DNA from: a virus
Taxonomy: Duplodnaviria; Heunggongvirae; Uroviricota; Caudoviricetes
Strand: one strand, 5' to 3'
Length of the DNA: 43,977 nt
IMG/VR virus record: IMGVR_UViG_3300042940_001755
In this document: in pieces, positions 3,167 to 32,351 of the stretch
Layout: every line of letters begins with the position of its first letter
Numbering within the stretch: the stretch's first letter is position 1
Notes under the pieces: model-generated
Seen by the model: only the letters and a program-made list of their open reading frames with translations
Databases searched by the model: none
Told to the model about the DNA's origin: nothing
Program-made: the position numbers and the translations under genes

Positions 3167-3786
3167 TACCCACGCCCCCACGCTGCTACAGCGCCTCTAG
3201 AGTTAACGTAAACACTGTCAGCGCATCTGTCCAACTCATTATGCGCACGCACCCTTGGTGAAGAAAAGTATCTCCCATTTTTTCTGTCTAAAGCCTGCAT
3301 GGGACTTCCTAATGAGATTTGGACAATAAGTTCCCCGAATTCACCGCAAGACATTCTAGTGACGACAGCGGTAGTTTTTCCCCGATATACTGTCAAGAAC
3401 TCGTCAGCCGACGTAGGAATGCTACCATCGTCTGTGAAAACAGCCAGTACAGTGGCGAAGCGGCCTGTCAGCCCCCAAGAATTCTCAGCTAGTAGACTTA
3501 GCCGTAAATCCGTAGACTCTATCTTATATGTCTCTCTGTCGACTGATGAGGTCATTCTCGGCGGCTCTAGACTCTTTAAAGTCCCGTCCGCTGTGAAGAT
3601 GAGGTCTCCAGCGCCAGGCAGATTTAGCGCAGTACGCGTAGCCTCAGGCATCTCGTAATCATCGAAATGTGACGAAGTTGCGTATATTGCTGTGTTATCA
3701 AGATCGAAAATAACGAGAAACAGCACAGCGTAAGCGCCCATGCCGGCTGATAGTAGATTCTTCGAACGATCTGATACTGTGATCAT
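3166..3786 (-). CDS. Minor tail / tail tip assembly protein (gpL-like position), 206 aa
   Basis: ORF coupled on both sides (ATGA and TAATG overlaps), between the Dit-like and J-like genes. Function is inferred from synteny. Confidence 0.6.
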   Translation of the reverse strand: MITVSDRSKNLLSAGMGAYAVLFLVIFDLDNTAIYATSSHFDDYEMPEATRTALNLPGAGDLIFTADGTLKSLEPPRMTSSVDRETYKIESTDLRLSLLAENSWGLTGRFATVLAVFTDDGSIPTSADEFLTVYRGKTTAVVTRMSCGEFGELIVQISLGSPMQALDRKNGRYFSSPRVRAHNELDRCADSVYVNSRGAVAAWGRG

Positions 3787-4652
3787 AAAGCCTCCACAAG
3801 TTTAATAGTGCCGCAGTCCATCAAAATGCCGTCATCATATGCCATTCCTGTCACTGTATCTGAGTCGAAATAACAATTTGCAACAACATTGAGAATGCGG
3901 ATAGAAGAGATAGTTCCGGAAAGGCGTAGTTCAGGGAACAAAATCAAGTGATTACTTTGCACTTCCTTGACCATGTACACCTTAGAGGTGTTATTTAGCT
4001 GAACAAACCAACCCGGCACAAGTCGCCAATCAGCTGCAGTAGCCTCCGGGACTACGATATGGTTTGCGAGTGGCGCCCTTGTACATGGCACAGTCTCAGG
4101 GGCGCCGTCTTTGTCATAATTCGAAGGGAAGTGAACCTTGCAGGGAGTGCTAGCAGCAGCTAACAGCTTCGCTGGATCTCCATTCTGTGATGCGTTTACT
4201 GTGATTCCCTGTGAAGGGTGAGAAGCGCTAGCAGGCACAACAGGATAGTAACCTTGCCCTGCTGAAGTCGCTACGAATAGAAAATCAACGCCTGGCGCGA
4301 CTTGTGTCAGCCTGTCCGGGATTGTTATAGTCGCTCGTGCCCCATTACGCGCGGAGATAGCGTCATAATCGTACTCCTTGCGCATCGCCATAATGGCGCC
4401 ATAGTTCTGAGGGAATGCTACTTGTGTCTGTGTGTGATACCCTTTCGTAACAAGTTCAACCATCAGCTCGTTAGCATCAACGAGCAACGGTGTCAATTTT
4501 GTAGAGATCTCCCAACGTTGGGCTCCTCTGCGCAATACAATTCGCTTGAGAGAAAGGGTATCCGTTTGAAACACAGGGTTATTGCTGCGGACAGTCAATG
4601 GGACTGTAAATTCCGCAATAACATCAGTGCCTCTTAGGATACCGTATTTCAT
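3783..4652 (-). CDS. Distal tail (Dit/gpM-like) protein, 289 aa
   Basis: First gene after the tape measure; N-terminal TDTLSLKR...GAQRWEI pattern resembles siphovirus distal-tail proteins. Mainly synteny. Confidence 0.55.
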   Translation of the reverse strand: MKYGILRGTDVIAEFTVPLTVRSNNPVFQTDTLSLKRIVLRRGAQRWEISTKLTPLLVDANELMVELVTKGYHTQTQVAFPQNYGAIMAMRKEYDYDAISARNGARATITIPDRLTQVAPGVDFLFVATSAGQGYYPVVPASASHPSQGITVNASQNGDPAKLLAAASTPCKVHFPSNYDKDGAPETVPCTRAPLANHIVVPEATAADWRLVPGWFVQLNNTSKVYMVKEVQSNHLILFPELRLSGTISSIRILNVVANCYFDSDTVTGMAYDDGILMDCGTIKLVEAL

Positions 4653-4658
4653 ACCGAG

Positions 4659-7600
4659 TTAACTCCTATAGTTAGACTCTTTGTTGTTGTTGTTCACTCC
4701 TTGAGTAATATCAGGGAGCATCTTGTAAATCTCAGATCTTGTTTGGCGACTGATATCTCCGGTGATGTTCATATTGACTACACTGGACTTATTACTCACT
4801 GCCTTTTCGCCAGCCTTTGCTGCAGCTGTGTTGGACGCCATTGTGGGCGTTGTCAAGATCGCAGGAGAGGTAGGTATTGAACCAACACCGCCACCCATTG
4901 CTCTCTTTATAACAGAACCACTATTGATAGCCTTTAGCAAGCCAGCGTGCTGAGCAGTTGCTTTAGCATTCACTACAAATTCGCCATTAGATAGCAGCGC
5001 GGGAATGCTGTCAGAAGTAGAAGTGCCTGGTCCAGATACATGGCCTCCATCGGCAAACATACCCATGAACATTCCGCCAAGTCCTGACAAGCCGTCCATG
5101 ATGCCACCACCAGCGCCACCTAGTAAGTCACCTATACCCCCTAGTGCACCTGATAGACCGTCCATAATACCGCTCATAGCGCCTGACAGACCGTCCATAA
5201 GACCGTCCATCAATCCACTAAGACTGTCCATCAGACCACCTAGCATATCGTCCATCATGGTCGTCATGTCATCCATCATCGTTGACAATCCAGAGAACAT
5301 TCCTTGGTCTGGCTGCATAGGTCCTACGAAGCTATCTGCGCTACTACCGCCTCCGAACAGAGAAGACAATCCGCCGCCACCCTTTCCGCCGCCCAGTACA
5401 GAGCTCAAAGAACTATTCTGTGCAGTGATTCCATCCGGCAATGCACTTGAAAGTGCTGACTGGATGTCAGGAGAGGCGTTCATGAAATCAGCAGTCTTTT
5501 CAATAGGCACTCTGGTCAGACCACTGGCAGCATCTCCTCCTCCGCCATCAAACCAACTTGAGATTGAATCACCAATACCACTGAAGAATCCAGAGTCAGG
5601 TTTTGTCATCTCATCTAGCTTGCTGGTCAATCCCTTGGCATCCACTGGTGACATCATTGCTGATGTTGTAGTCTTTCCTGTGAACTTATCCAAGGTATCA
5701 GTCAAGCTGCCTTCTGCAGCAGCGACAGGGCTCATGTCTACGGATGTATCTGGCGAAGTAATACCTAGCCAATCAGTGATACCGCTGAACATTCCTTTGT
5801 CGCCCTTAGTGGTTGGCAGAGCCTTCGACATAGCGGACGAAATACCATCAGCAACACCACCTTTACCGCCACCCATCAGCATGAGAGCTGCCTTCTGTAA
5901 CTCTTTAGCAGCCTTCTCTAACTCAGCATTAGCAGAGCTAGCGTTGATAGAACCTACCAGCGACATTATAGGAGATGCAAGACTCATTGCAGTACCGATG
6001 AAGCCTCCTTCAGCGCGATGTACAAGCTCGCTGCCGGAGTTGATAGCCTGTAATAGACCAGCATGTTTGCGCGTAGCTTTGGCATTTACCACAAACTCGC
6101 CATCAGATAACATTGCAGGAATACTATCAGACTTAGAAGTGCCTGGTCCGGATACATGGCCGCCTTCAGCAAAACCCAGGGATGACCAAATACTAGCGAT
6201 ACCACCGACTAAGCCGCCTGTGCCGTCCATGTTCTCACCCATGATCATCTTCTTAAGGAAGCCCCAGATGCCATTGTCTCCGATAAGCCAGTCTAGCATT
6301 CCTCCTTCGCCCTCTTTTGTTTTAGAGGAGAAGATATTTGCAATAGAACCGTTCTTACCTAAGAAGCCGTCATCACCGATGAGCCAGTCGAACATGCCGT
6401 CTGATTTACCAGCTATTACAGACTTCATACCGTCATCTAGCCATGGATTGCCACCTGCAGACTTGATACTACTAGTAAGCTCACCTCTACTCTTCTCAGT
6501 GAAAAGATCAGATAAGAATGAAGAAGTTTTGTCAGATTTACTATCGAAGAGAGAGGCGTTGAATGGGTCAAAGTCTTCTCCAGAAGAGCCAAACAAGGTG
6601 TTTATATTACCTATGTCTGCTTTCCCGTAGCCTGCCCCTTTCAGTACATCTTGACTAATACCGTTCTTGAGAAGATATCCAGCGCCTATGACACCTGCCC
6701 CGCCTAACAGCCAAGGTGCAACGGATCCTATAGTGTCCATGATACCGCCGCTAGAAGCTGCTGCTGCTGCTGCTGCCCCGACACCTCCAGCACCCATCAA
6801 TCCTACAGATGCAGCAAATTTATCTACTGCAGAGCTGAAGGTATCTTCCGGAGTTTTACCTACGAGACTTCCACCTCCAAGGCCTGATAGTAAATCACCA
6901 ACACCAGGGATACTTCCCAGCAAACTTCCTGGTCCGGCGAACAACATGCTACCAGTTCGCTCCATCATCTTATCCATCATGCCGCCTCTTCCGAAGCCGA
7001 AAGAAGCTGCGAGACCTTTGGACAATGTATCTGTTACATGACCGGTGAAGCCATCTAGCATTTTCTTGCCAATACCTTTAGTATTGCCTTCTAGTAAATC
7101 TTTGAAGGTAGACTCAGCGAAGCCTTTCATTCCATCCTTGAAGGACTTACCGGCATTCTCAATAGACTTAGCATTCTCCATAATTGAAGTTGTAAGGCTT
7201 TCAAGACCAGACTGATACTGTAATAAAGCTTCTTGAGCCTTAGCCGCATCTTCAGCGTTGGTGGCACTGTCTAATGCCTCTTTAGCAAGCTTAATCTGCT
7301 CTGCGAATGTTGTAAGCTCCGCTGATTGTGCGATGTCTGCTAAGTTGTAAGCAATAGGCTCAATGCCTAAACCTTCGTTCCCGGTAGCTACTCTGCGCTT
7401 TGCATGAAAATCACTTTTGTAAGCTTCAAAGTCTGCCTCGTACTGTGCAACTGAGCGATCATACGGCTTCTCGCGAGTAACTCTACCTGCGAGATGTTGA
7501 GTCTCGTCTGCCGCACGCTCTTTGATGTTTATAACTGTATCCACTAATTGCTCAGAGGACGCAGCTACTTGGTTGCTTACTTCTTGGAAGGAAGCATTTA

Positions 7601-22790: not shown

Positions 22791-23228
22791 CTAAAGGATT
22801 GCCCAGTCTTCCGACAAAGTGTCGTTGATACTCGGTACCCACGTACTTGTAGAGCCGTTTACATTCTTGATCGCCAAGTATGAGTTTAACTGTTCAGATT
22901 CGGGGACTAATGTCACATACATGCCCTTGCCATTCCACCCTTTTCGGCTAACAGATGCACCACGCTTAAGAGCCTCAATTGCCAGACCGAAAGTCATCCT
23001 TTCAATCTCACGGTAGCTGGAGTCAAATTGCACTTTAGGTGTCCAAGAGATGTAACCGCCGTAATTGGGGTGATTTGGAGTACACGCACCACCATTATCT
23101 TCCACCAAGTACCCGTCATCCTCGCCATTCTCATTCGTAGGCAAATCCCATCCGCGCAATTCGTTGTAGGCAAGACGTGTCATCGGGGTGGCAGTTACTA
23201 ACTTACTCCCGTAATATGCCTTCATCAT
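22791..23228 (-). CDS. DUF2829 / Tad2-like (Thoeris anti-defence sponge family) protein with extra N-terminal domain, 145 aa
   Basis: MTFGLAIEALKRGASVSRKGWNGKGMYV...WVPSINDTLSEDW is the DUF2829 signature; this family includes Tad2 as recalled. Confidence 0.75.
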   Translation of the reverse strand: MMKAYYGSKLVTATPMTRLAYNELRGWDLPTNENGEDDGYLVEDNGGACTPNHPNYGGYISWTPKVQFDSSYREIERMTFGLAIEALKRGASVSRKGWNGKGMYVTLVPESEQLNSYLAIKNVNGSTSTWVPSINDTLSEDWAIL

Positions 23229-23551
23229 GCGAACACCGAGTTGTGACCGGCTTCAGAGAGCCAAAGATGCTGCTTGAGGCGATAGCCCTCTAACTGCCAA
23301 ACTTTATCTCTGGCATTGCCGCGTGCAACAGAGCGCCCTATGGCTTCATTGAAGTTCTCTGGAGACGCACATGCTGATTCTCCAGTGACTTGGAAACCGT
23401 TTGTTAAGGTAAGTAAGCACACCGTGACAGTAGTGTCAGGAAACACATAATACGCTTCACCAATAATCTGCGCATCAATGTGTTCAGGGGACAAGCGAGG
23501 AGCAGTAAGTCCTTTCGCGACAATCTCCTCCTCTAATTGCTGCTCGTTCAT
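23225..23551 (-). CDS. Phage gp49/gp66-family protein (candidate Acb4-like sponge), 108 aa
   Basis: TAPRLSPEHID...TVTVCLLTLTNGFQVTGESACASPENFNEAIGRSVA...VWQLEGY matches the Phage_gp49_66 pattern; the Acb4 link is recalled, not verified. Confidence 0.7.
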   Translation of the reverse strand: MNEQQLEEEIVAKGLTAPRLSPEHIDAQIIGEAYYVFPDTTVTVCLLTLTNGFQVTGESACASPENFNEAIGRSVARGNARDKVWQLEGYRLKQHLWLSEAGHNSVFA

Positions 23552-23739
23552 ACGAATGCCTCGATTCTTTCTGCCAAGATATACGCGTACTCACGCATCG
23601 CAGCTAACTGACGTGTCATTCTGGTGTATTCCTCTGGAGACGCAGTAGAGTCATCACGACTCAAAAAGTCATTTAAGGCATTGATCTTTAAAAGTAATTC
23701 GTCATTCTCTTGAATGACTCTTTGTTGATAAGGTTGCAT
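23548..23739 (-). CDS. Small helical protein (crAss001_48-like), 63 aa
   Basis: MQPYQQRVIQE.DEL..KI.AL.DFL...Q..AM.EY..IL.ERI..F pattern; ATGA-coupled to the next gene. Confidence 0.65.
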   Translation of the reverse strand: MQPYQQRVIQENDELLLKINALNDFLSRDDSTASPEEYTRMTRQLAAMREYAYILAERIEAFV

Positions 23740-23741
23740 TG

Positions 23742-24122
23742 TCAGCCTATTCCGTAAAAGCCTAAGTCATTGTCATATTTTGACGGCTCAGGTATTGGAG
23801 AGAGAATGTGTTCTTCGGTAAGGATATCTGATTCCTTGAGTAACACACCGTTAATCCGAGAGCGACCAGCCACCGGAATGATCCCAGTATCGATTGCCTC
23901 ATCTAAGTATTTTTGGTAAAGCTCATCTGGGAGACCACGTGCGTGCATCTCATCTAATGTTGCCTTGATTGACTGCTTGGAGACTGCTTCAGCATAAAGC
24001 TCACGGAGACCTGCTCTGGCCTTTATCATATCAGCACTGTTGGCAAAGAAAGCATCATGGATGGTGCTGGTAGGGATGTTGTTCTTCTTGCCCCATAGGT
24101 GAAAGCCTTTTACGAGTGTTGC
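23742..24122 (-). CDS. MuF-RNA polymerase exon 2 (126 aa, contains catalytic motif C IHDAF)
   Basis: Manual translation ATLVKGFHLWGKKNNIPTSTIHDAFFANSAD runs in frame into the listed 23742..24029 ORF; IHDAF corresponds to T7 RNAP IHDSF (Asp812). Confidence 0.9.
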   Translation of the reverse strand, partial: ATLVKGFHLWGKKNNIPTSTIHDAFFANSADMIKARAGLRELYAEAVSKQSIKATLDEMHARGLPDELYQKYLDEAIDTGIIPVAGRSRINGVLLKESDILTEEHILSPIPEPSKYDNDLGFYGIG

Positions 24123-25077
24123 CGTTATATTACAGCCAGTTCGTTAATCTTGCTGTGTGTGTCAGATTTTGAGGTTAATAATTAATGGTTTTTCCAGATC
24201 TTTCCGGACTCAATTCCTGCGATGGTGCCTCTATGGACGCCATACGTTGCAGCAATTACTTTCTTTGGCACTGAATCTGCTAGCAGTAGCCTTATCTCAG
24301 CTACCGATTCTGGTGTTAATTTCCCTTTCTGCGAAAGATTAGGGAAGGCGTCTCTGGAGATATGCTTCCAAGTCTTGTTAAGACGAATGTGGCTTATAGC
24401 CCCTGTGCTGCACCCAAATGCTTTTGCAATATCTGCGGTAGATTCGCCTCTAGCGCAACGCTCAAGAATTAGGATGACATCCTTCTCAGCCAGCAGCGCG
24501 TGTACGCTCTCCTCACCCACTTTGCCATTTCCTTCTGCATACGAGTGTTGAATATTTTCTGCAGTAGTGGACCACTCTAAATTAGCAACAGCGTTATTGG
24601 CTGGGTTACTATCTTTATGGTTAACAACAGGCTTTCCCATAGGATTGTCGATAAACGTCTCTGCCACCAACCGGTGCACTTGGACTGTCTTGACTACACC
24701 ATTGTGCCACATGCCAAATTTGACGTAACCTTGAGAGGTAATGTTCCCTGCCAGCAAGGTCCCTGTGTTGTCATTCCTAAGTCTGCCTTGATCGCTGACA
24801 GAGTATTGTGTATCTTTGTATTGTTTCCAAATTTCATTCATTTGTAGCTTCTCCAATGTGTTCTGACACACATCTCCATATTCCGATGGAGTCTAGACTA
24901 TATCATACATCCTTGTCCTTGCGCTTCGGCATCACTTGACACCTACTCTACTCTCTTATTACGATTTCGATAGTCGTTGCACCCCGCTATATAGTAGCAT
25001 CCTGCTACACAGGGCTCAGTATTACCCGTTCTGGGCTTCCACTGAATTCACAAGGTTTTAAAACGACAGCTTTGTTT
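24123..25077 (-). mobile_element. Group I self-splicing intron (955 nt, IA-like core) with homing endonuclease ORF
   Basis: Exon 1 ends in U and the intron ends in G (24123). P1: exon AAACGAU pairs with intron GUCGUUU with a terminal U-G. Core elements: P AAUUCAGUGGAA (25037-25048), Q AAUACUGAGC (25014-25023), R GUGCAACGACUAUCG (24968-24982), S AUGAUAUAGUCUA (24894-24906); P3 CCUUGUG/CGCAAGG. Removal restores the reading frame. Confidence 0.92.
24182..24841 (-). CDS. Intron-encoded NUMOD4-HNH homing endonuclease (I-HmuI-like), ~219 aa
   Basis: EIWKQYKDTQYSVSDQGRLRN (NUMOD4-like); VHRLVAETFIDNP...VNHKDSNPANNAVANLEW (HNH); two C-terminal HTH-like repeats; SD GGAG before the ATG at 24841. Confidence 0.9.
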   Translation of the reverse strand: MNEIWKQYKDTQYSVSDQGRLRNDNTGTLLAGNITSQGYVKFGMWHNGVVKTVQVHRLVAETFIDNPMGKPVVNHKDSNPANNAVANLEWSTTAENIQHSYAEGNGKVGEESVHALLAEKDVILILERCARGESTADIAKAFGCSTGAISHIRLNKTWKHISRDAFPNLSQKGKLTPESVAEIRLLLADSVPKKVIAATYGVHRGTIAGIESGKIWKNH

Positions 25078-28000
25078 ATCGTTTGAGTGGTTGCCATTAA
25101 CCGCGTAAGCTGTCCTGGCCTTTGTAACATCTGCAATGTCGTTAATCTTGCCTTCTTTGTTGATGATCTGTTCCCACCAAGTTGCTTCTGTCTTTTGAGG
25201 AACCTGAATGACATTCATTACTGTATTGCCATCCTTGTCTTTATAGAGCAGTTTCTCTTCGAAGGCTTGGGTGAAGTTCTGCTCTAGAACCTTCCCATCA
25301 AAGTTCACCCAAGGGACATTTGTCCAGCTCTTTGGGAGCTTATTTGAGTAGAATAGCTGAAAGCCCTTCGTAACATCTAAGATCTGAAACAGTTCTATTT
25401 TAGCGTACTTGGCACCTGTTCGGCGATCTGTACTTGCCTGCTTTCCTCCTAGAAGGATGTCAGCCAGTGTAGAGTCTGGTTTAAACCAACTAAATCGCTT
25501 CAGCACCTGTTCAGTCAATGGAGTTTTAGGGTCAACACCTAACATCTCACTGAAGCGAGATCCGAACAGGACTTTCACCTTATTATCTAGACCTAACAAA
25601 TCACCCACAACTCTATCAACTGTCTTGCCTTTCTTGCGTTCACCAAAGAGCGTGATTTCACCAATAGCCTTCCAATCGAAGTCAGCGTTCTTAGGCTTGG
25701 CATGGCGAAGATAGTCTTCTGCCAGCCTTCCGAAGAACTTAGTGAAATCTTTAAGGATCGGCACTTGTTCACCAAGGTGATCACTCATGATGTTCGCAAT
25801 ATCCTTAAAGTCCTTTGGTGTGACAACCAAATCGTACGTTGCAGACATCTTCTCGACTAAAGCACGGTTGCCAGGGTCTAAGAAGTAAAGTTGCTCCATA
25901 ATCTCGTCACCGGGATCTAGACCTTTGTTGAAGATATCTCTGACATTAGCTCTCAAGGTCATCAGCTCGTCAAAGGTGTCAGGGTCGTAAGACTTATAGC
26001 GGGCTGCTCTGGCAGAGATCTCGTCCAGGATGGTATCACGCTCTGACGCCTTCACTACTAAGGTGTTGCCCTGCTTCTCTAGTATCTTGGCTAATTTGCC
26101 TTCAACATTGAGAATACCTGTACGTTCTCCAGCACCGTAAAAGGTAACCATGTTCTGAGCCTTCGCCGCCTTCCTTAAGTCTTTCTCAGATAGGCCGAGA
26201 CGCTCATTCATGACCTTGAAACGTGGGTCATTGTAAGTAGCCGCAGCTATCTCATCGTATAGGCGGCGCTTCTGGGTGGTAGGAACTACATTGCTAAGTT
26301 CAGCTAACTGTTTGTTCTTAGTTGCCAGCGCGATAATCTGAGCACCTGAGGATGAAGCATCTTGCTCTAAAGCAAGAGCTGTTTTGTAACTATTCATCTT
26401 CGCCACAACATCAGTTGCACGTGGTGCAGCTAATGCCTTGACACTCTCAGCACCGATTTCCTTGTTCAACCTCTCAATTAGTCCAATCGCGTCCCCTGGA
26501 ACTACCTTAAGGCCGGCATCATTTGCAGCAATTAATGCAGCCTCCTGATTGGTCTTCATAAAGTAAGGACTATCAGCATCTTTAATTACAGTAGCCGCGC
26601 CAAATCTCTCAGCCTTTAAAGCTCTTTTCTGAGCCTCTATTAGCTTAAAGACTCTGGCACTCCTTGGAACCGAAGCAGACTTCAGATGCTCCTCCATAAA
26701 CTCACCGAGCTCCTCCACCACTTGCATGGCAATGTAACGAGGTGTGTCACCTTTAGAGCGCTGTTCGAATTTAGCCTTATTCTCCGCCACCTTGGCTGCA
26801 GAGAATTTCTCTCCTGTGGCTTGGTCGAACGTCTTATAAGTAGCCCTCTCCATCCGCTCTTTGGTAAGCGAAATGTCAGCGGTATGCAGCCATTTAAAGG
26901 CTTCGCCAACATCCTTAGATGTCAATTTACCTTCTGATGCAAGCCTTAATAAGTCTGATTGCGCCTGTATTACCTCTGCGGGACTGCTAATGTAATCAGG
27001 ATCAGTCTTATTATTCACACCAAGCAAACGCACTAACCCTGCTGCATCTTGCCGTTCAGATAATAGGCCTGGGGTAGATACCACCTCGCTAACAGCAGCA
27101 GAAGTCCCGTCTTTGAGATAATTGTCAATCTTAGCAGCTTCCATAGCGAATCTAAAGAACTTACCAAGCTCTTCGCCTTCGACCTGTTGCACCATGCTTG
27201 ACTCAAGAACACCTCTGATGTCTGCCGGTTTACCTCTCATCAGCTTATTGCCGACATCGACCATCTCAGGCCACAATCTATCGGCAATCTTCTGCCGCCC
27301 AGTAAATGTCAATGAGTTGTCTTTGCCTTCAAAGGCATCAGTCAGGCCTCCTAAGAAGGCGCCAGTCTGATCTCTGAAATTCAAGTAACCGTCATATCCG
27401 AGAATCTTCTCTTCCTTCGTGTTAAGGAATGGCCGGAAAGATTCACCAGACTGAGGGCTAATCAACCCACGGTCATAAATGCGAGCCCGATGATCAATAA
27501 ACGGGTTATTAGAGAATGAATCACCCGATTTACGCAGCCACTCCATTGATTTAAAGCGTTCATACGCATCTCCACGTCCTGCAATGTAGTGTTTGTACTC
27601 ATTAAGTCCATCGTAGAATTTAGCCTTACCTCTGTCATCCACAAAGTAAAGAACCTTTTGAACGGCATCATAGAAATCAGGGTCCACCCTATATTCAGTC
27701 TGGGATGCCCAATTTAAGGCGTCCACAGTGTTCTTGTCAACAAAAGACTCAGGGAAGTCACTAAACGAGCTTGTAGAGGTAATCGGGATACGAGTATCAT
27801 AATTATCTTCAGTAAAGTACGTCTTGTAGCCCTCTCTGAACTTAAGACGATTCTCAGGTTTCGTTACAGCAACCCGCAAACCCAGCTCTACCTTTCTGGT
27901 GAGGTGGGAGTACTCTTGCACTCTAGGGTCTGTGACCCTAATGTTGTATGCGAGCGTATCGTAATACGGGCCAAATAGATTCCCTGACATTCGCGACTTC

Positions 28001-30051
28001 ATGCGTCGTTTCTGGACGCCAAAAGTCTCTACCTCAAACAGATCGGTATTGCCTTCCAGTAATGCCAGACCTGTCTCATACCACTTATCCTTTGTACCGT
28101 TTAAGTTAGCTTGGTTGTACAGATCTCTGCCCAATGCGATAGCTAGCTGGTCTCTGTCAGGGGTATCCGCTAATGACAATCGGTTGGCGAAGCGTAAGTA
28201 GAACATCTGCTTACTTGCTTCATCGAGGCGATGGTTGATTATTAGTGGAATATGTCTGTCAAAAGCATCCCTTAGCTCTCTCGCAATCTTAGGGGCAGTT
28301 CTGTCTTCCCACAAATTCTTGGCCTTAATATTGCCAATGAAGTTGTCATGAAGATCTTGAAGCTGAGTTGGTCCCAGAACAGGGTCAATGTAGTTATCTT
28401 GAAGTAACTTCTTTAAAGGGTCAGAGCCGCTTCTTATCTGAGTCTCAATCGAATCCGAAACGTTCATCACGTCAAACTTGATTTGTGATTGTGATACAGC
28501 TTTGAAGTTTCCCCAACGCTCGCCATTCTTACGATAACGTGTGAATACAATCCTCAAGTTATCAGCAATAACAGCTCTTTCATTGGCTCCCATCTTTTCA
28601 TTCAAGCCTTCTACGAAGGTAACTATGAAGTCTTTATCTACCTGCTTCAAATCTGGACTATTCCGAATCAATTTCAGATTGTTATTAAGCACGCCTAGAT
28701 TTGGCTGATACAGACGGGTGTCCTCATAACGCCCTGTTACTGGATTGAATATCATCTGATCTTCGCGGGGGAGGCTTGTTAGCACTCGCCGCTTCATCGC
28801 TTTCTTGTTACCAATAAGCGCTCCACGGAAGTTAGTTAGTGAGAGAGTGCCGTCAAGCTCGCCTGCTTGTAAGAGATAATAGTCTTTCAGTGTCTGTGTC
28901 AATGCAGGATCCGAGAAGAAATCTTCAGGCATTGTGGCATGAAGTTGCATGGCGTCTAACTTCGCCTTAGCGTTAGCAAAGCGCATGGTGTCGTTAGGGA
29001 TAGTGTAAGTGCTATCAGTGATCTGTCTCAGTTCATTCAAGCCTACTGTGTTTCCCTCAGGATTAGAGAATTTGTCAACGGTAAGTTGACCTGTGTTGAA
29101 CATCTCAACCTTCTTGTAATCCCCCAGATGCCGTAGCTGTGTCTGTTTAGGTTGGCGGAGAAGCCAATCATTATAAGACTCATGCAGAGGCAACATCCCG
29201 TCGTAATAAGCTTGCTGATCTTTAGTGAGACTTCCGAGATTCCTCTTTCTGACCTGAGCGACTGCCTCCAACTTTCCCATGTCATCCCAAGACTTAAGGA
29301 CGGGGGTGGTAGTTGATCTACATCTATAATGGGCAGGAGGTAGATGCTCTGTATCACCAATAGGGTAAATCTGACCATCTCGATGAGCACAAATTGGAGT
29401 GGTACGGGAATCAAGTACAGCAACATACTGCCACCCGCTAATAGCTTTTTCATTCGCCTTATAAATCTCATGATCGGCCTGATTCGTCACCGAGGTGACT
29501 GCCGTGGTTACTAATGCAGCTGCTTGGTTCTTCGATATCGCAGAGATAGCTCTAACACTCTTAGCTAACTCGCTGTTAGTGTTGCCCTCTGCAAGACCTC
29601 TCCGAATAGCAGACTCAATTCTTATCTTTTCACCTTCAGAAATGCCTGCCCAGCCCTGCGCCAGAGTCTTTTCTTCGTGCAGAGGTCTCTCTAGCACAAT
29701 CTCTTCCGCAATACGCCGATTAGGTCTTTCTGTCTTCCAGATGTCTCCGAAGAGCTTTTCGACTCCACCATACGTGAATGAGGCTTGGTCACTTGCGAGG
29801 CCCAGTAAGTCATTCTTAGTAGAGCGAAATGCATCTGTATATGTCTTTTTAATCTCCTTATCCACAGCCTCTCTGAATATCAAAAAGCCCGCAGTGGAGA
29901 AGTTGGCGTCATTGACTAACTTATCAACACGAACGGCATGGCCATCTAGGATCAACTCGACTCTTCCGGCAACTCTCCGCTCAAATAAGCGCACCATTGC
30001 GGCTCTGTCAATGATTCTATCGTACAGCTCTGTATTCGCATTTATAGCCAT
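25078..30051 (-). CDS. MuF (SPP1 gp7/Mu gpF) minor head protein fused to T7-like single-subunit RNA polymerase, exon 1 (1658 aa)
   Basis: N-terminal WQYVAVLDSRTTPICAHRDG...PPAHYRCRST (MuF). RNAP motifs: DHRARIY (DxxGR-like, ~27476-27496), EQDASSSGAQ (motif A, ~26338-26367), RKAAKAQNMVTFYG (motif B, ~26134-26175), AVNGNHSND (T7 NFVHSQD). Confidence 0.92.
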
Positions 30052-30194
30052 TAGATCACCTTTCCTTTACCTGTAAGTGGATCGTAAGTTGCCCCACGAT
30101 AATCTCCACCATATTGTTTAAGCGCCTTGGAGATTACTCTCTTGACACCTTCTTTCTTTGTAAGACCCTTCTCTACCTGTACGGACCGCGCCAT
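30051..30194 (-). CDS. Small basic protein, 47 aa (not in ORF track)
   Basis: MARSVQVEKGLTKKEGVKRVISKALKQYGGDYRGATYDPLTGKGKVI; TAATG overlap with the RNAP start; paralogous to the upstream neighbour. Confidence 0.75.
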   Translation of the reverse strand: MARSVQVEKGLTKKEGVKRVISKALKQYGGDYRGATYDPLTGKGKVI

Positions 30195-30196
30195 GA

Positions 30197-30349
30197 CTAA
30201 TCCTGTGCTGAGCCTTTACCAGTAACTGTGTCGTACTCTACGATGCGCCAGTCGCGGTTCCCGTGAAGTTCTCTTAACTTAGCAACAATAGCTGCTCTGC
30301 CTTCACGGGGACGAAGACCTTTGGCGACTTGAACTGTCACCTTAGCCAT
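30197..30349 (-). CDS. Small basic protein, 50 aa (not in ORF track)
   Basis: MAKVTVQVAKGLRPREGRAAIVAKLRELHGNRDWRIVEYDTVTGKGSAQD; tiles the gap exactly; paralogue of 30051..30194. Confidence 0.75.
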   Translation of the reverse strand: MAKVTVQVAKGLRPREGRAAIVAKLRELHGNRDWRIVEYDTVTGKGSAQD

Positions 30350-30394
30350 TTATTTACCTTTACCGCCGCCTTTACCTTTGCCTTTACAAGCCAT
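30350..30394 (-). CDS. Putative 14-aa Gly/Lys-rich peptide
   Basis: MACKGKGKGGGKGK; SD TAAGGA upstream; its stop abuts the next ATG. Confidence 0.5.
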   Translation of the reverse strand: MACKGKGKGGGKGK

Positions 30395-30403
30395 GTCAAT
30401 TCC

Positions 30404-30817
30404 TTATTTACCGTGGAGGCCTGGACGGGACTTGTCTAAGCCCATTCCTACGCCAGAGTGAGGAGGCCCAGAAGGACGTGTCATGCGTACACCTAGTTTA
30501 GCACCAGCATAATGGGTGAGGCCGCTTACAGCTGCTCCGCCTACAGCACCTGCTGCTGCGCCTACCGCCGTTCCGCCTGGTCCCATTGCACTACCAACAA
30601 TGGCACCTCTAATACTGCCAACGAGTGCGCCACCAACCATACCGGTAGCCGTCGAGGAAGATACGACTCTTCGCGACGACTCTGAACCTCGCTTTCCAGC
30701 GATGTTACCGGCGATATAAGAACCAATTGGTCCAGCAAGCATTGAGGCTGCGGTACCGAGTCTGCGACCATTCTTCTTATGAGGGCCTGCCGCATTATTA
30801 TTACCAAACTTAGCCAT
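30404..30817 (-). CDS. Basic glycine-zipper protein, 137 aa
   Basis: GMVGGALVGSIRGAIVGSAMGPGGTAVGAAAGAVGGAAV GxxxG repeats; immediately follows the portal gene. Confidence 0.7.
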   Translation of the reverse strand: MAKFGNNNAAGPHKKNGRRLGTAASMLAGPIGSYIAGNIAGKRGSESSRRVVSSSTATGMVGGALVGSIRGAIVGSAMGPGGTAVGAAAGAVGGAAVSGLTHYAGAKLGVRMTRPSGPPHSGVGMGLDKSRPGLHGK

Positions 30818-30818
30818 T

Positions 30819-32351
30819 TTAACTCTCCATTGCTAGCGTGCTAGCGAAATTGTCATTTGTTTGAGGTGCCGCCTGAGTAAGCACATCACCAGTGATTTCC
30901 TGGATCCCTTCCTCGTCATTGTAAGAAGGATCCACCATGTCGTTAGACTTGAGCATTTGCAACCACAAAGAGCGGGGGATCAATCCTTTCTCATACCACT
31001 CTGTCGCTAGTCGCAACCAATCTGCGCCTAAAGGCACCGGATCAAAGTCAGTGGATAATGTGAACTTCACCTCTGTCAACGGAATATCAATGTTATAGCG
31101 CCACTTAATCATAAACGCGATGATAGCTCGCATGGTGTGGCTTACTTTATTACTAAGTACACCCAGCTGCGCTGTTTGGGCAGCATTACGAATCTCTAAG
31201 GCAACACCTGACTGAACATTCTCAGGCGATAACATTCTCACACCCAGTCTAGCAATCTCTTCGATGGCCTGGACGATTGAGCGATCCATGTCCGATAAGG
31301 CCGCAGTAGGCGTATCCAAGATTGTAGCCTTACCGTCCATCGGTAGACGAATCCAAGAGCCTAAACCTGCTTCAACTATCTCGTCAAAGGCGTCATCAGT
31401 CAAATCAGCACAGATAACAGGTGTGTAAGTAGCTGCACCATACAGCAAGTGATTGCGTCGACTGACCTTGTTATAAAGACTCACTTCTTTGTCCACAATA
31501 GCGGTCAACAGGGGCGGCACAGGCTTGATAGAACCATTAAGAGGCCACGCAGGGATTGATGTGACTCTCTCGCCATGCATGAGAATATTGTCGAATGTGT
31601 CTTTCAAAACCATTCCGGATGCTACATCTGTCAAGTCTCTGACTGAGGTTGTATTCGTCTGCTGTCTATCTTCACTCTTGCGCCCTGTTTCCTGGAATAC
31701 CCTGACTTGATAATAGCCCTCTTCAGTCAACTCATGTACCCAGCAGGTGTCGAGGACTTTCGGGTGGAACTCGTTGTCAGGGGAGTACACTTCTTCAAAG
31801 CCTCTTACAATTACTTGACTAAGGCCTCTGCTGTCTACTTTCCAGTTGATAATGCTTTCTGATTTGTGAATCACAGGATAGGGCTTAAAGTTCTTAAGCT
31901 CTTCAGGGTCAACCTCATCAGGATTGGCGATGTTCGGATAGTCCAAGAACACCCAACAACGAGAAGACTGCATCTCTTCCCACAACGCTTCATCTAGGAA
32001 TGCCGTCATCGGTGAGTCATCTTTACAGAACTGTTGCATCAGCCATTCATGGGCTTCTGCAGGAGCCGTGGCAGGCAGTTCAAGGATTGGTTGCTTGCGA
32101 AGTAATCCGCCAACCAGCATTCTGGCGAATTGAGCTGAGATACCGGGCAATTCAGCCTCGGCTTTATAGAACTTCCACTGATCATAGCTCATCGAGTGAG
32201 AGAATGGAATCAGTAAATTCTCAAAATTGTACACATCCAGCACTGCATCATACTTCTTTACAGCTGCTTCTCCGTTACATACAGCTCGGCAACGTCCCCA
32301 TAATTTAGCGAACAAGGAGTAAGCAGCGCATGGGGTCGCTACCGTAACCAT
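30819..32351 (-). CDS. Portal protein (DUF4055-like), 510 aa
   Basis: Size, sequence style (PPLLTAIVDKEVSLYNKVSRRNHLLYGAATYTPVI), and position upstream of the MuF gene. Confidence 0.85.
   Translation of the reverse strand: MVTVATPCAAYSLFAKLWGRCRAVCNGEAAVKKYDAVLDVYNFENLLIPFSHSMSYDQWKFYKAEAELPGISAQFARMLVGGLLRKQPILELPATAPAEAHEWLMQQFCKDDSPMTAFLDEALWEEMQSSRCWVFLDYPNIANPDEVDPEELKNFKPYPVIHKSESIINWKVDSRGLSQVIVRGFEEVYSPDNEFHPKVLDTCWVHELTEEGYYQVRVFQETGRKSEDRQQTNTTSVRDLTDVASGMVLKDTFDNILMHGERVTSIPAWPLNGSIKPVPPLLTAIVDKEVSLYNKVSRRNHLLYGAATYTPVICADLTDDAFDEIVEAGLGSWIRLPMDGKATILDTPTAALSDMDRSIVQAIEEIARLGVRMLSPENVQSGVALEIRNAAQTAQLGVLSNKVSHTMRAIIAFMIKWRYNIDIPLTEVKFTLSTDFDPVPLGADWLRLATEWYEKGLIPRSLWLQMLKSNDMVDPSYNDEEGIQEITGDVLTQAAPQTNDNFASTLAMES

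Follow-up and report, generated by a model that had tools for sequence, protein, structure and literature searches.

Organization of the MuF-RNA polymerase locus

The sequence analysed here is a 43,977-nt stretch of DNA from an uncultured lake phage (hereafter the window). On its minus strand, which holds all genes in this part of the window, it carries a gene for a MuF head domain fused to a T7-type single-subunit RNA polymerase (RNAP) of 1784 aa. A group I intron containing a homing-endonuclease gene splits this gene ahead of the codon for the catalytic aspartate (Table 1). The MuF-RNAP gene belongs to the head module, where it lies 5' of ORFs of 238 and 395 aa. In the roseophage DSS3_VP1 the order is the portal gene, the homologous gene, a hypothetical protein and the annotated main coat protein; the homologue (L002, MN602266, DSS3VP1_00028) is labelled only 'minor head protein-like' in GenBank. 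Upstream of the MuF-RNAP start codon, the 767 nt (30052-30818) separating it from the next large gene (30819-32351) contain no ORF of at least 150 aa.

Table 1. Coordinates of the features of the split MuF-RNAP gene in the window and insertion sites of same-class introns in the family
Feature	Position	Strand	Basis or carrier
MuF head-morphogenesis domain, aa 145-248	29308-29619	-	Pfam Phage_Mu_F
Exon 1, 1658 codons	25078..30051	-	ORF list; Pfam; alignment to homologues
Motif B, R1293-G1306	26134-26175	-	alignment to homologues
P1 5' strand, last 7 exon bases AAACGAU	25078..25084	-	sequence; duplex with the internal guide sequence (IGS)
Group I intron, 955 nt, phase 0	24123..25077	-	between codons D1658 and A1659
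IGS GUCGUUU, P1 3' strand	25061..25067	-	sequence; intron bases 11-17
Ribozyme core, P3-P9	24874..25055	-	Rfam alignment; covariation in 19 introns; MFE fold
P3	25055-25049 / 24923-24917	-	part of the core, with P4, P5, P6/P6a
In-frame UGA ending the unspliced product (…HSNDKQSCRFKTL, stop)	25048..25050	-	ORF list
P7	24975-24971 / 24900-24896	-	part of the core
P7.2 hairpin	24943-24928	-	in the 47-nt P7.1/P7.2 region
P9	24891-24874	-	part of the core
Closing helix 5' arm (P9.1-like), UGUGUGUCAGA	24862..24872	-	inverted repeat, 11 nt, 100% complementary
Homing endonuclease gene, 219 aa	24182..24841	-	Pfam; PDB 1u3e
Closing helix 3' arm, UCUGACACACA	24156..24166	-	inverted repeat
Candidate terminal hairpin (P9.2-like, ACAGC...GCUGU), then tail AAUAUAACG	24132..24156	-	read from sequence
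Intron terminal G (omega-G), 3' splice site	24123..24123	-	sole join restoring D-A as in homologues
Exon 2, 126 codons and stop	23742..24122	-	translation
Motif C His-Asp, H1680 D1681	24059-24054	-	exon 2; D1681 = 24056-24054
Site A1	between RKA and AKA, motif B		L003
Site A2	between AKA and QNM, motif B		L007, L008, L016
Site A3	within the Val codon of NMV, motif B		EBPR siphovirus 1 and nine IMG/VR loci
Site A4	between VTF and YG, motif B		L007, L008
Site B1	between VNG and NHSND, 15 nt upstream of the window site		L050, L078, L080
Site B2	between HSND and A		window only

The two parts of the fusion were recognized by profile comparison. Exon 1 matches Phage_Mu_F (PF04233) with an E-value of 4.3e-18 (66.5 bits). 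Taken alone, it reaches 20 bits (E 3e-4) against RNA_pol (PF00940), under the 22-bit cutoff; the uninterrupted homologue L013 gives a match spanning the junction with 43.6 bits (E 2.3e-11, same cutoff), and PF00940 was matched in all 12 family members tested. Exon 1 holds motifs A and B, and in the family alignment the invariant catalytic motifs follow each other in the expected order, A (…EQDASSSGAQ…), B (…RKAAKAQNMVTFYG…) and C (…TIHDAFF…). A profile search of PDB sequences returned weak matches only, to T7 RNAP (E 0.04) and N4 RNAP2 (E 0.045). Alignment by hhalign to residues 723-862 of T7 RNAP (E 5e-4, at a probability of only 31%) sets NHS-ND and the following A on H784-QD787 and G788, and HD on H811 D812, so that the junction corresponds to the T7 step from D787 to G788. 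This placement puts the intron 23 codons ahead of the catalytic Asp. An AlphaFold2 model of the C-terminal 595 aa of L013, built on a 14-sequence alignment, was discarded, its mean pLDDT of 49.7 being too poor for a fold search. By analogy with N4 vRNAP, the polymerase may be packaged in the capsid and injected.

The window protein also contains, before motif A, a helical in-frame module of ~200 aa (26480-27050, aa ~1000-1190). In many relatives (L004-L012, L019-L035), a copy 51-57% identical to it lies after motif B instead, at 3310-4000 in the case of L006. No intein motifs were seen in this module, which is found at two places in one enzyme.

Exon junction and requirement for splicing

The 1667-codon frame at 25048-30051(-) that opens the gene ends in ...AVNGNHSNDKQSCRFKTL and a stop. 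Exon 1 itself closes with ...AAC CAC TCA AAC GAT and exon 2 opens with GCA ACA CTC at 24122; read through, the unspliced frame ends KQSCRFKTL at the UGA, which falls within the P3/J3-4 region of the intron. Joining GAT to GCA yields a computed product of full length, in which ...VNGNHSND is followed directly by ATLVKGFHLWG.... This join aligns without gaps with the uninterrupted EBPR siphovirus 1 gp49 and DSS3_VP1, which read VNMNHSNDAVIVKRFHLWG and VNGNHSNDAVIVRRFHLWG, respectively, at the junction and to which exon 2 is 52% and 40% identical. Intron-less alleles, which the original prediction had proposed to look for in relatives, are indeed frequent: the junction is unbroken in 73 of the 80 IMG/VR relatives listed, out of roughly 190 in that database.

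The exon 2 frame (ATLVKGFHLWGKKNNIPTSTIHDAFF..., stop at 23744-23742), which follows ~0.9 kb after the exon 1 frame, has no start codon of its own. Indeed, neither ATG, GTG nor TTG occurs from the in-frame stop 8 codons 5' of exon 2 down to a Met at 24029, which already lies beyond the motif C HD. A separate exon 2 product thus cannot be made, and a complete polymerase requires splicing; judging from these frames, the intron is probably spliced out of the transcript.

Structure of the ribozyme

The Rfam model RF00028 (Intron_gpI) aligns along its entire length to 24874-25108(-), at 45 bits and an E-value of 1.1e-9. The search with group I covariance models that had been suggested as a check thus turned out positive in its E-value but stays under the 50-bit gathering score of the model, at which no match was obtained anywhere in the whole window. 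Since the intron scores below 50 bits, a default annotation scan would miss it. Same-class introns of relatives score 55-91 bits with the same model. The R and S elements, GUGCAACGACUA and AUGAUAUAGUCU, fit the Rfam consensus. P1 comprises 7 bp, with the exon-final U opposite G in a U.G pair at the 5' splice site, and its duplex has an energy of -5.1 kcal/mol. The 5' strand of P7 and the 3' strand of P3 are separated by 47 nt, where a clear GGUGUC/GAUGCC hairpin is seen and P7.1 could not be made out. The MFE fold of the ORF-deleted intron recovers P3-P6, P7.2, P9 and P9.1. The weak points of the structure are P8, of only ~3 bp, and P10, of only 2 bp and offset by one base.

A covariance model made from ten related introns was searched in the window and 82 loci. 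It detected 19 introns in these 83 sources, exactly one of them in the window; its 169.5 bits fall inside the 157-224 bits of the others. Across the 19 introns (15 distinct), P3, P4, P5 and P9 are paired at 96.7%, versus 83% in shuffles and ~40% with slid partners. Changes on both sides occur in 17 pairs, and none of 500 shuffles reaches the observed pairing. P7 (GACUA/UAGUC) is uninformative for covariation because it is invariant.

The original prediction, made from the sequence alone, agrees well with these results. It had placed a group I intron with an HNH endonuclease at 24123-25077, just upstream of motif C, and the coordinates hold with the RF00028 match, the endonuclease domains and the 1u3e structure. 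The GAU at the end of exon 1, the intron-final G and the 7-bp P1 with its U-G splice pair are as it had read them. The ribozyme core that it described as readable is borne out by the R and S elements, by covariation for P3 and by the location of P7. Its colinear join with T7 RNAP (NHSND-A on HSQD-G) and the truncation of the unspliced product after KQSCRFKTL, with splicing needed for activity, were recovered as well.

The closing helix, an 11-nt perfect pair with one arm on either side of the endonuclease ORF, is the first-listed inverted repeat within the intron. At the equivalent place, the sister intron of L003 contains a perfect pair of 10 nt whose sequence is wholly different. Together, these two pairs suggest that a P9.1-like helix loops out the ORF, which would return the 3' splice site to the core. 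The hairpin read near the 3' end remains a candidate, because the MFE fold pairs GCUGU with the intron 5' end instead. A similar layout, with the ribozyme core first and the ORF in a 3' peripheral helix, is found in the T4 nrdD (sunY) and T-even IA2 introns, although these have another endonuclease family and another host gene. The T-even IA2 introns also carry P7.1/P7.2-type extras between P7 and P3', and an early in-frame stop after the 5' splice site.

The structural data bear on two other readings of the locus. One takes the insert for an intein, or for a free-standing endonuclease gene between two independent genes; an endonuclease ORF does lie between two open frames, and GenBank divides the EBPR homologue into three genes. 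However, the insert contains stops in the host frame, its boundaries are a U.G pair and a terminal G, it has both a covariance match and covariation, and homologues are single uninterrupted ORFs. We therefore hold this reading to be hardly conceivable. Intein, frameshift and independent-gene readings were all rejected on the stops, the covariance match, the gap-free join and the covariation.

According to the other reading, the insert is a decayed intron/endonuclease cassette that no longer splices, and the polymerase is made as two assembling polypeptides. There is a precedent: of the two intron-like insertions described by Babenko et al. (2019, bioRxiv 10.1101/542787), the one in the g39 DNA polymerase of phage 10Gb is reported not to splice, the enzyme being made as two polypeptides that assemble. 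The Rfam score under the gathering cutoff and the weakness of P8 and P10 would also fit. Nevertheless, every conserved core element is present and the score with the family model is an ordinary one. Furthermore, exon 2, lacking a start before motif C behind an in-frame stop, cannot be made alone, which argues against a two-subunit outcome of this type. Such a non-splicing cassette thus appears quite unlikely, and the locus is best explained, in all likelihood, by a mobile self-splicing intron, putatively of the phage IA type with extra P7.1/P7.2 elements, which interrupts the MuF-RNAP gene, is removed from the RNA and would be capable of homing.

Endonuclease encoded by the intron

The 660-nt endonuclease ORF starts with ATG at 24841, preceded by GGAG 9 nt 5', and stops at 24184-24182. 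Its product contains NUMOD4 (9.5e-6), HNH_3 (1.2e-6) and HTH domains according to Pfam. It is full length, matches the I-HmuI structure 1u3e (E 6.8e-15) with the HNH residues …NHKD…NN…N aligned, and is a putative I-HmuI-type enzyme in activity and specificity. Empty sites with the exact P1 target, TCAAACGAT followed by GC, are present in ~17 relatives; the empty site of L003 lies at 4973-5011. The same HNH family serves the introns of the DNA polymerase genes of the Bacillus phages SPO1 and SP82 (I-HmuI/I-HmuII), which are likewise phage group I introns in a conserved polymerase motif; their host gene is a DNA polymerase, unlike the RNAP of the window. The ORF of the SPO1 intron is placed in the P8 loop, and that of the window in the 3' P9.1-like loop.

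Proposed pathway of splicing and homing

After transcription of the late operon, the ribozyme would fold in the RNA. The seven bases that end exon 1 would pair with the guide sequence as P1, with the P3-P9 core folding behind it, and the 11-bp helix would loop out the endonuclease ORF, drawing the intron 3' end to the core. The intron could then excise itself by two transesterifications initiated by guanosine. Ligation of the exons would join ...CACUCAAACGAU to GCAACACUCGUA... and restore the frame for the catalytic His-Asp of motif C; the ligated RNA would read ...CACTCAAACGAT followed by GCAACACTCGTA..., with the junction peptide ...AVNGNHSNDATLVK.... The I-HmuI-type HNH enzyme, for its part, would nick or cut the alleles of co-infecting relatives that lack the intron, and repair would copy the intron in.

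Related introns in the MuF-RNAP family

Relatives carry same-class introns at five sites besides that of the window, four in motif B and one before motif C. Those of EBPR siphovirus 1 (gp47, gp48 and gp49 of JF412302), L003, L007, L016, L044, L050, L078 and L080 share the ribozyme class and the host gene family of the window, but all sit at other positions. In each family intron the guide sequence fits its own exon, with its own P1/IGS. The B2 site, on the other hand, is occupied in none of the 80 IMG/VR relatives listed. Scanning IMG/VR for the exact P1/IGS pattern returned 8 matches, none resembling the RNAP protein or the intron by BLAST. With a tighter pattern, 5 matches were obtained in metagenome contigs; the single intron among these, L093, lies in an unrelated gp5-like gene. 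Since no other copy at this site was found among the 80 relatives and in the pattern scans, P1 and homing at B2 stand without comparative support.

Some of these loci have features of their own. In L007 and identically in L008, two ORF-less group I introns follow each other (630-887 and 906 to ~1162 within L007:630-1162), and the micro-exon between them is only 18 nt, CAAAATATGGTCACCTTT, encoding QNMVTF of RNAP motif B. The intron of L093 (3750-3990(-), Ga0207421_10001646), on an unrelated metagenome contig, is of the same class with an identical P1 (AAACGAU/GUCGUUU) and adjoins a gp5-like baseplate-spike ORF; this ORF, downstream of the intron, matches T4 gp5 domains.

The closest relative of the window is L003, whose RNAP is 83-94% identical in amino acids and whose A1 intron lies ~1.1 kb from the insertion site of the window. 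The window ribozyme is nearest to this A1 intron (83% over 198 nt), others giving at most 70% over shorter BLAST matches, and a full-length comparison of the two endonucleases gives 38% identity. Of 18 target-site bases, A1 and B2 have 11 in common; 15 of ~5,300 gene positions score as high, and the comparison was chosen post hoc. Such a resemblance is suggestive and consistent with site switching. It is conceivable, though we regard it as rather doubtful, that a single intron lineage shifted among the catalytic-motif sites within the gene, by intragenic transposition (reverse splicing or ectopic homing) and subsequent retargeting of the endonuclease. If so, the six insertion sites with their matched guides would document how a group I intron has transposed naturally within a single gene.

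Comparison with described introns

Group I introns with HNH endonucleases are textbook elements of conserved phage genes, and the window intron is a familiar kind of selfish element that reveals no new mechanism. The original prediction had also supposed that no intron had been described in a T7-type single-subunit RNAP gene; this does not stand. In the G7C-like N4-type coliphages N4G2 and Sz33, g16, encoding RNAP II, contains an insertion of ~800 bp with a homing-nuclease ORF (bioRxiv 10.1101/542787). Its splicing was demonstrated by RT-PCR, by sequencing of the junction and by the junction peptide in ...MTAFYG... (bioRxiv 10.1101/542787), so that an intron in a T7-family RNAP gene is already on record. 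The g16 and window introns share a homing-nuclease ORF, a T7-family RNAP gene as host and a site in the catalytic region. However, the former lies inside motif B (…MTAFYG…) of a free polymerase subunit encoded by a middle gene of a podovirus, whereas the latter lies 23 codons ahead of the Asp of motif C, in a polymerase that is fused to MuF and encoded in a head-gene operon. Furthermore, Rfam gives no match for the g16 insert but does match the window intron.

A literature search found no paper on a MuF fusion to a T7-like RNAP or on its introns, and nothing relevant on group I introns together with a virion-associated RNA polymerase. In the Naomviridae paper, RNA polymerase is nowhere mentioned. 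What is new is of modest extent: the B2 site is unseen in relatives, and same-class introns occupy five other sites in motif B or before motif C. These data add to the evidence that mobile introns regularly target T7-family RNAP genes. The repeated invasion of the O-helix/motif B and of the stretch ahead of motif C, at six distinct positions, makes the MuF-RNAP family a useful natural data set on how introns and their endonucleases choose and change sites.

A practical consequence concerns annotation. In the corrected gene model, what would be called a 'truncated head protein', an HNH gene and an orphan give way to a single capsid-linked RNAP of 1784 aa. Mis-annotation of this kind, which had been anticipated, is found in GenBank for EBPR siphovirus 1 (L001, JF412302 gp47-gp49), where the intron-split MuF-RNAP is entered as three genes, 'head protein', 'HNH endonuclease' and 'hypothetical protein'.

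Occurrence in lake metagenomes and the second polymerase

By megablast, the region matched none of 50,697 phage records. The intron-containing DNA was recovered at 100% identity, with the intron in place, in several lake-water metagenome runs of 2020 and 2024; no RNA run was among those listed. In four lake-water DNA runs, the contigs over 23000-27000 contain the intron and bridge both junctions, and none of them joins across the intron as an intron-less allele would.

Complete genomes of relatives (74-79 kb) have two PF00940 genes each, the second encoding a compact T7-like RNAP of ~745 aa. With such an enzyme at hand, the MuF-RNAP could be a dead gene and the intron be without functional bearing. 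This is very improbable, even more so than a non-splicing cassette: both exons are open and keep all family-invariant residues of motifs A, B and C, the sequence is identical in runs dated 2020 and 2024, and the relatives retain both polymerases. The compact polymerase gene may itself be interrupted, as in G003, the record of L027, where the gene (71554-73603) is split by an RF00028 intron; a further intron lies at 46904-47182 of the same record.
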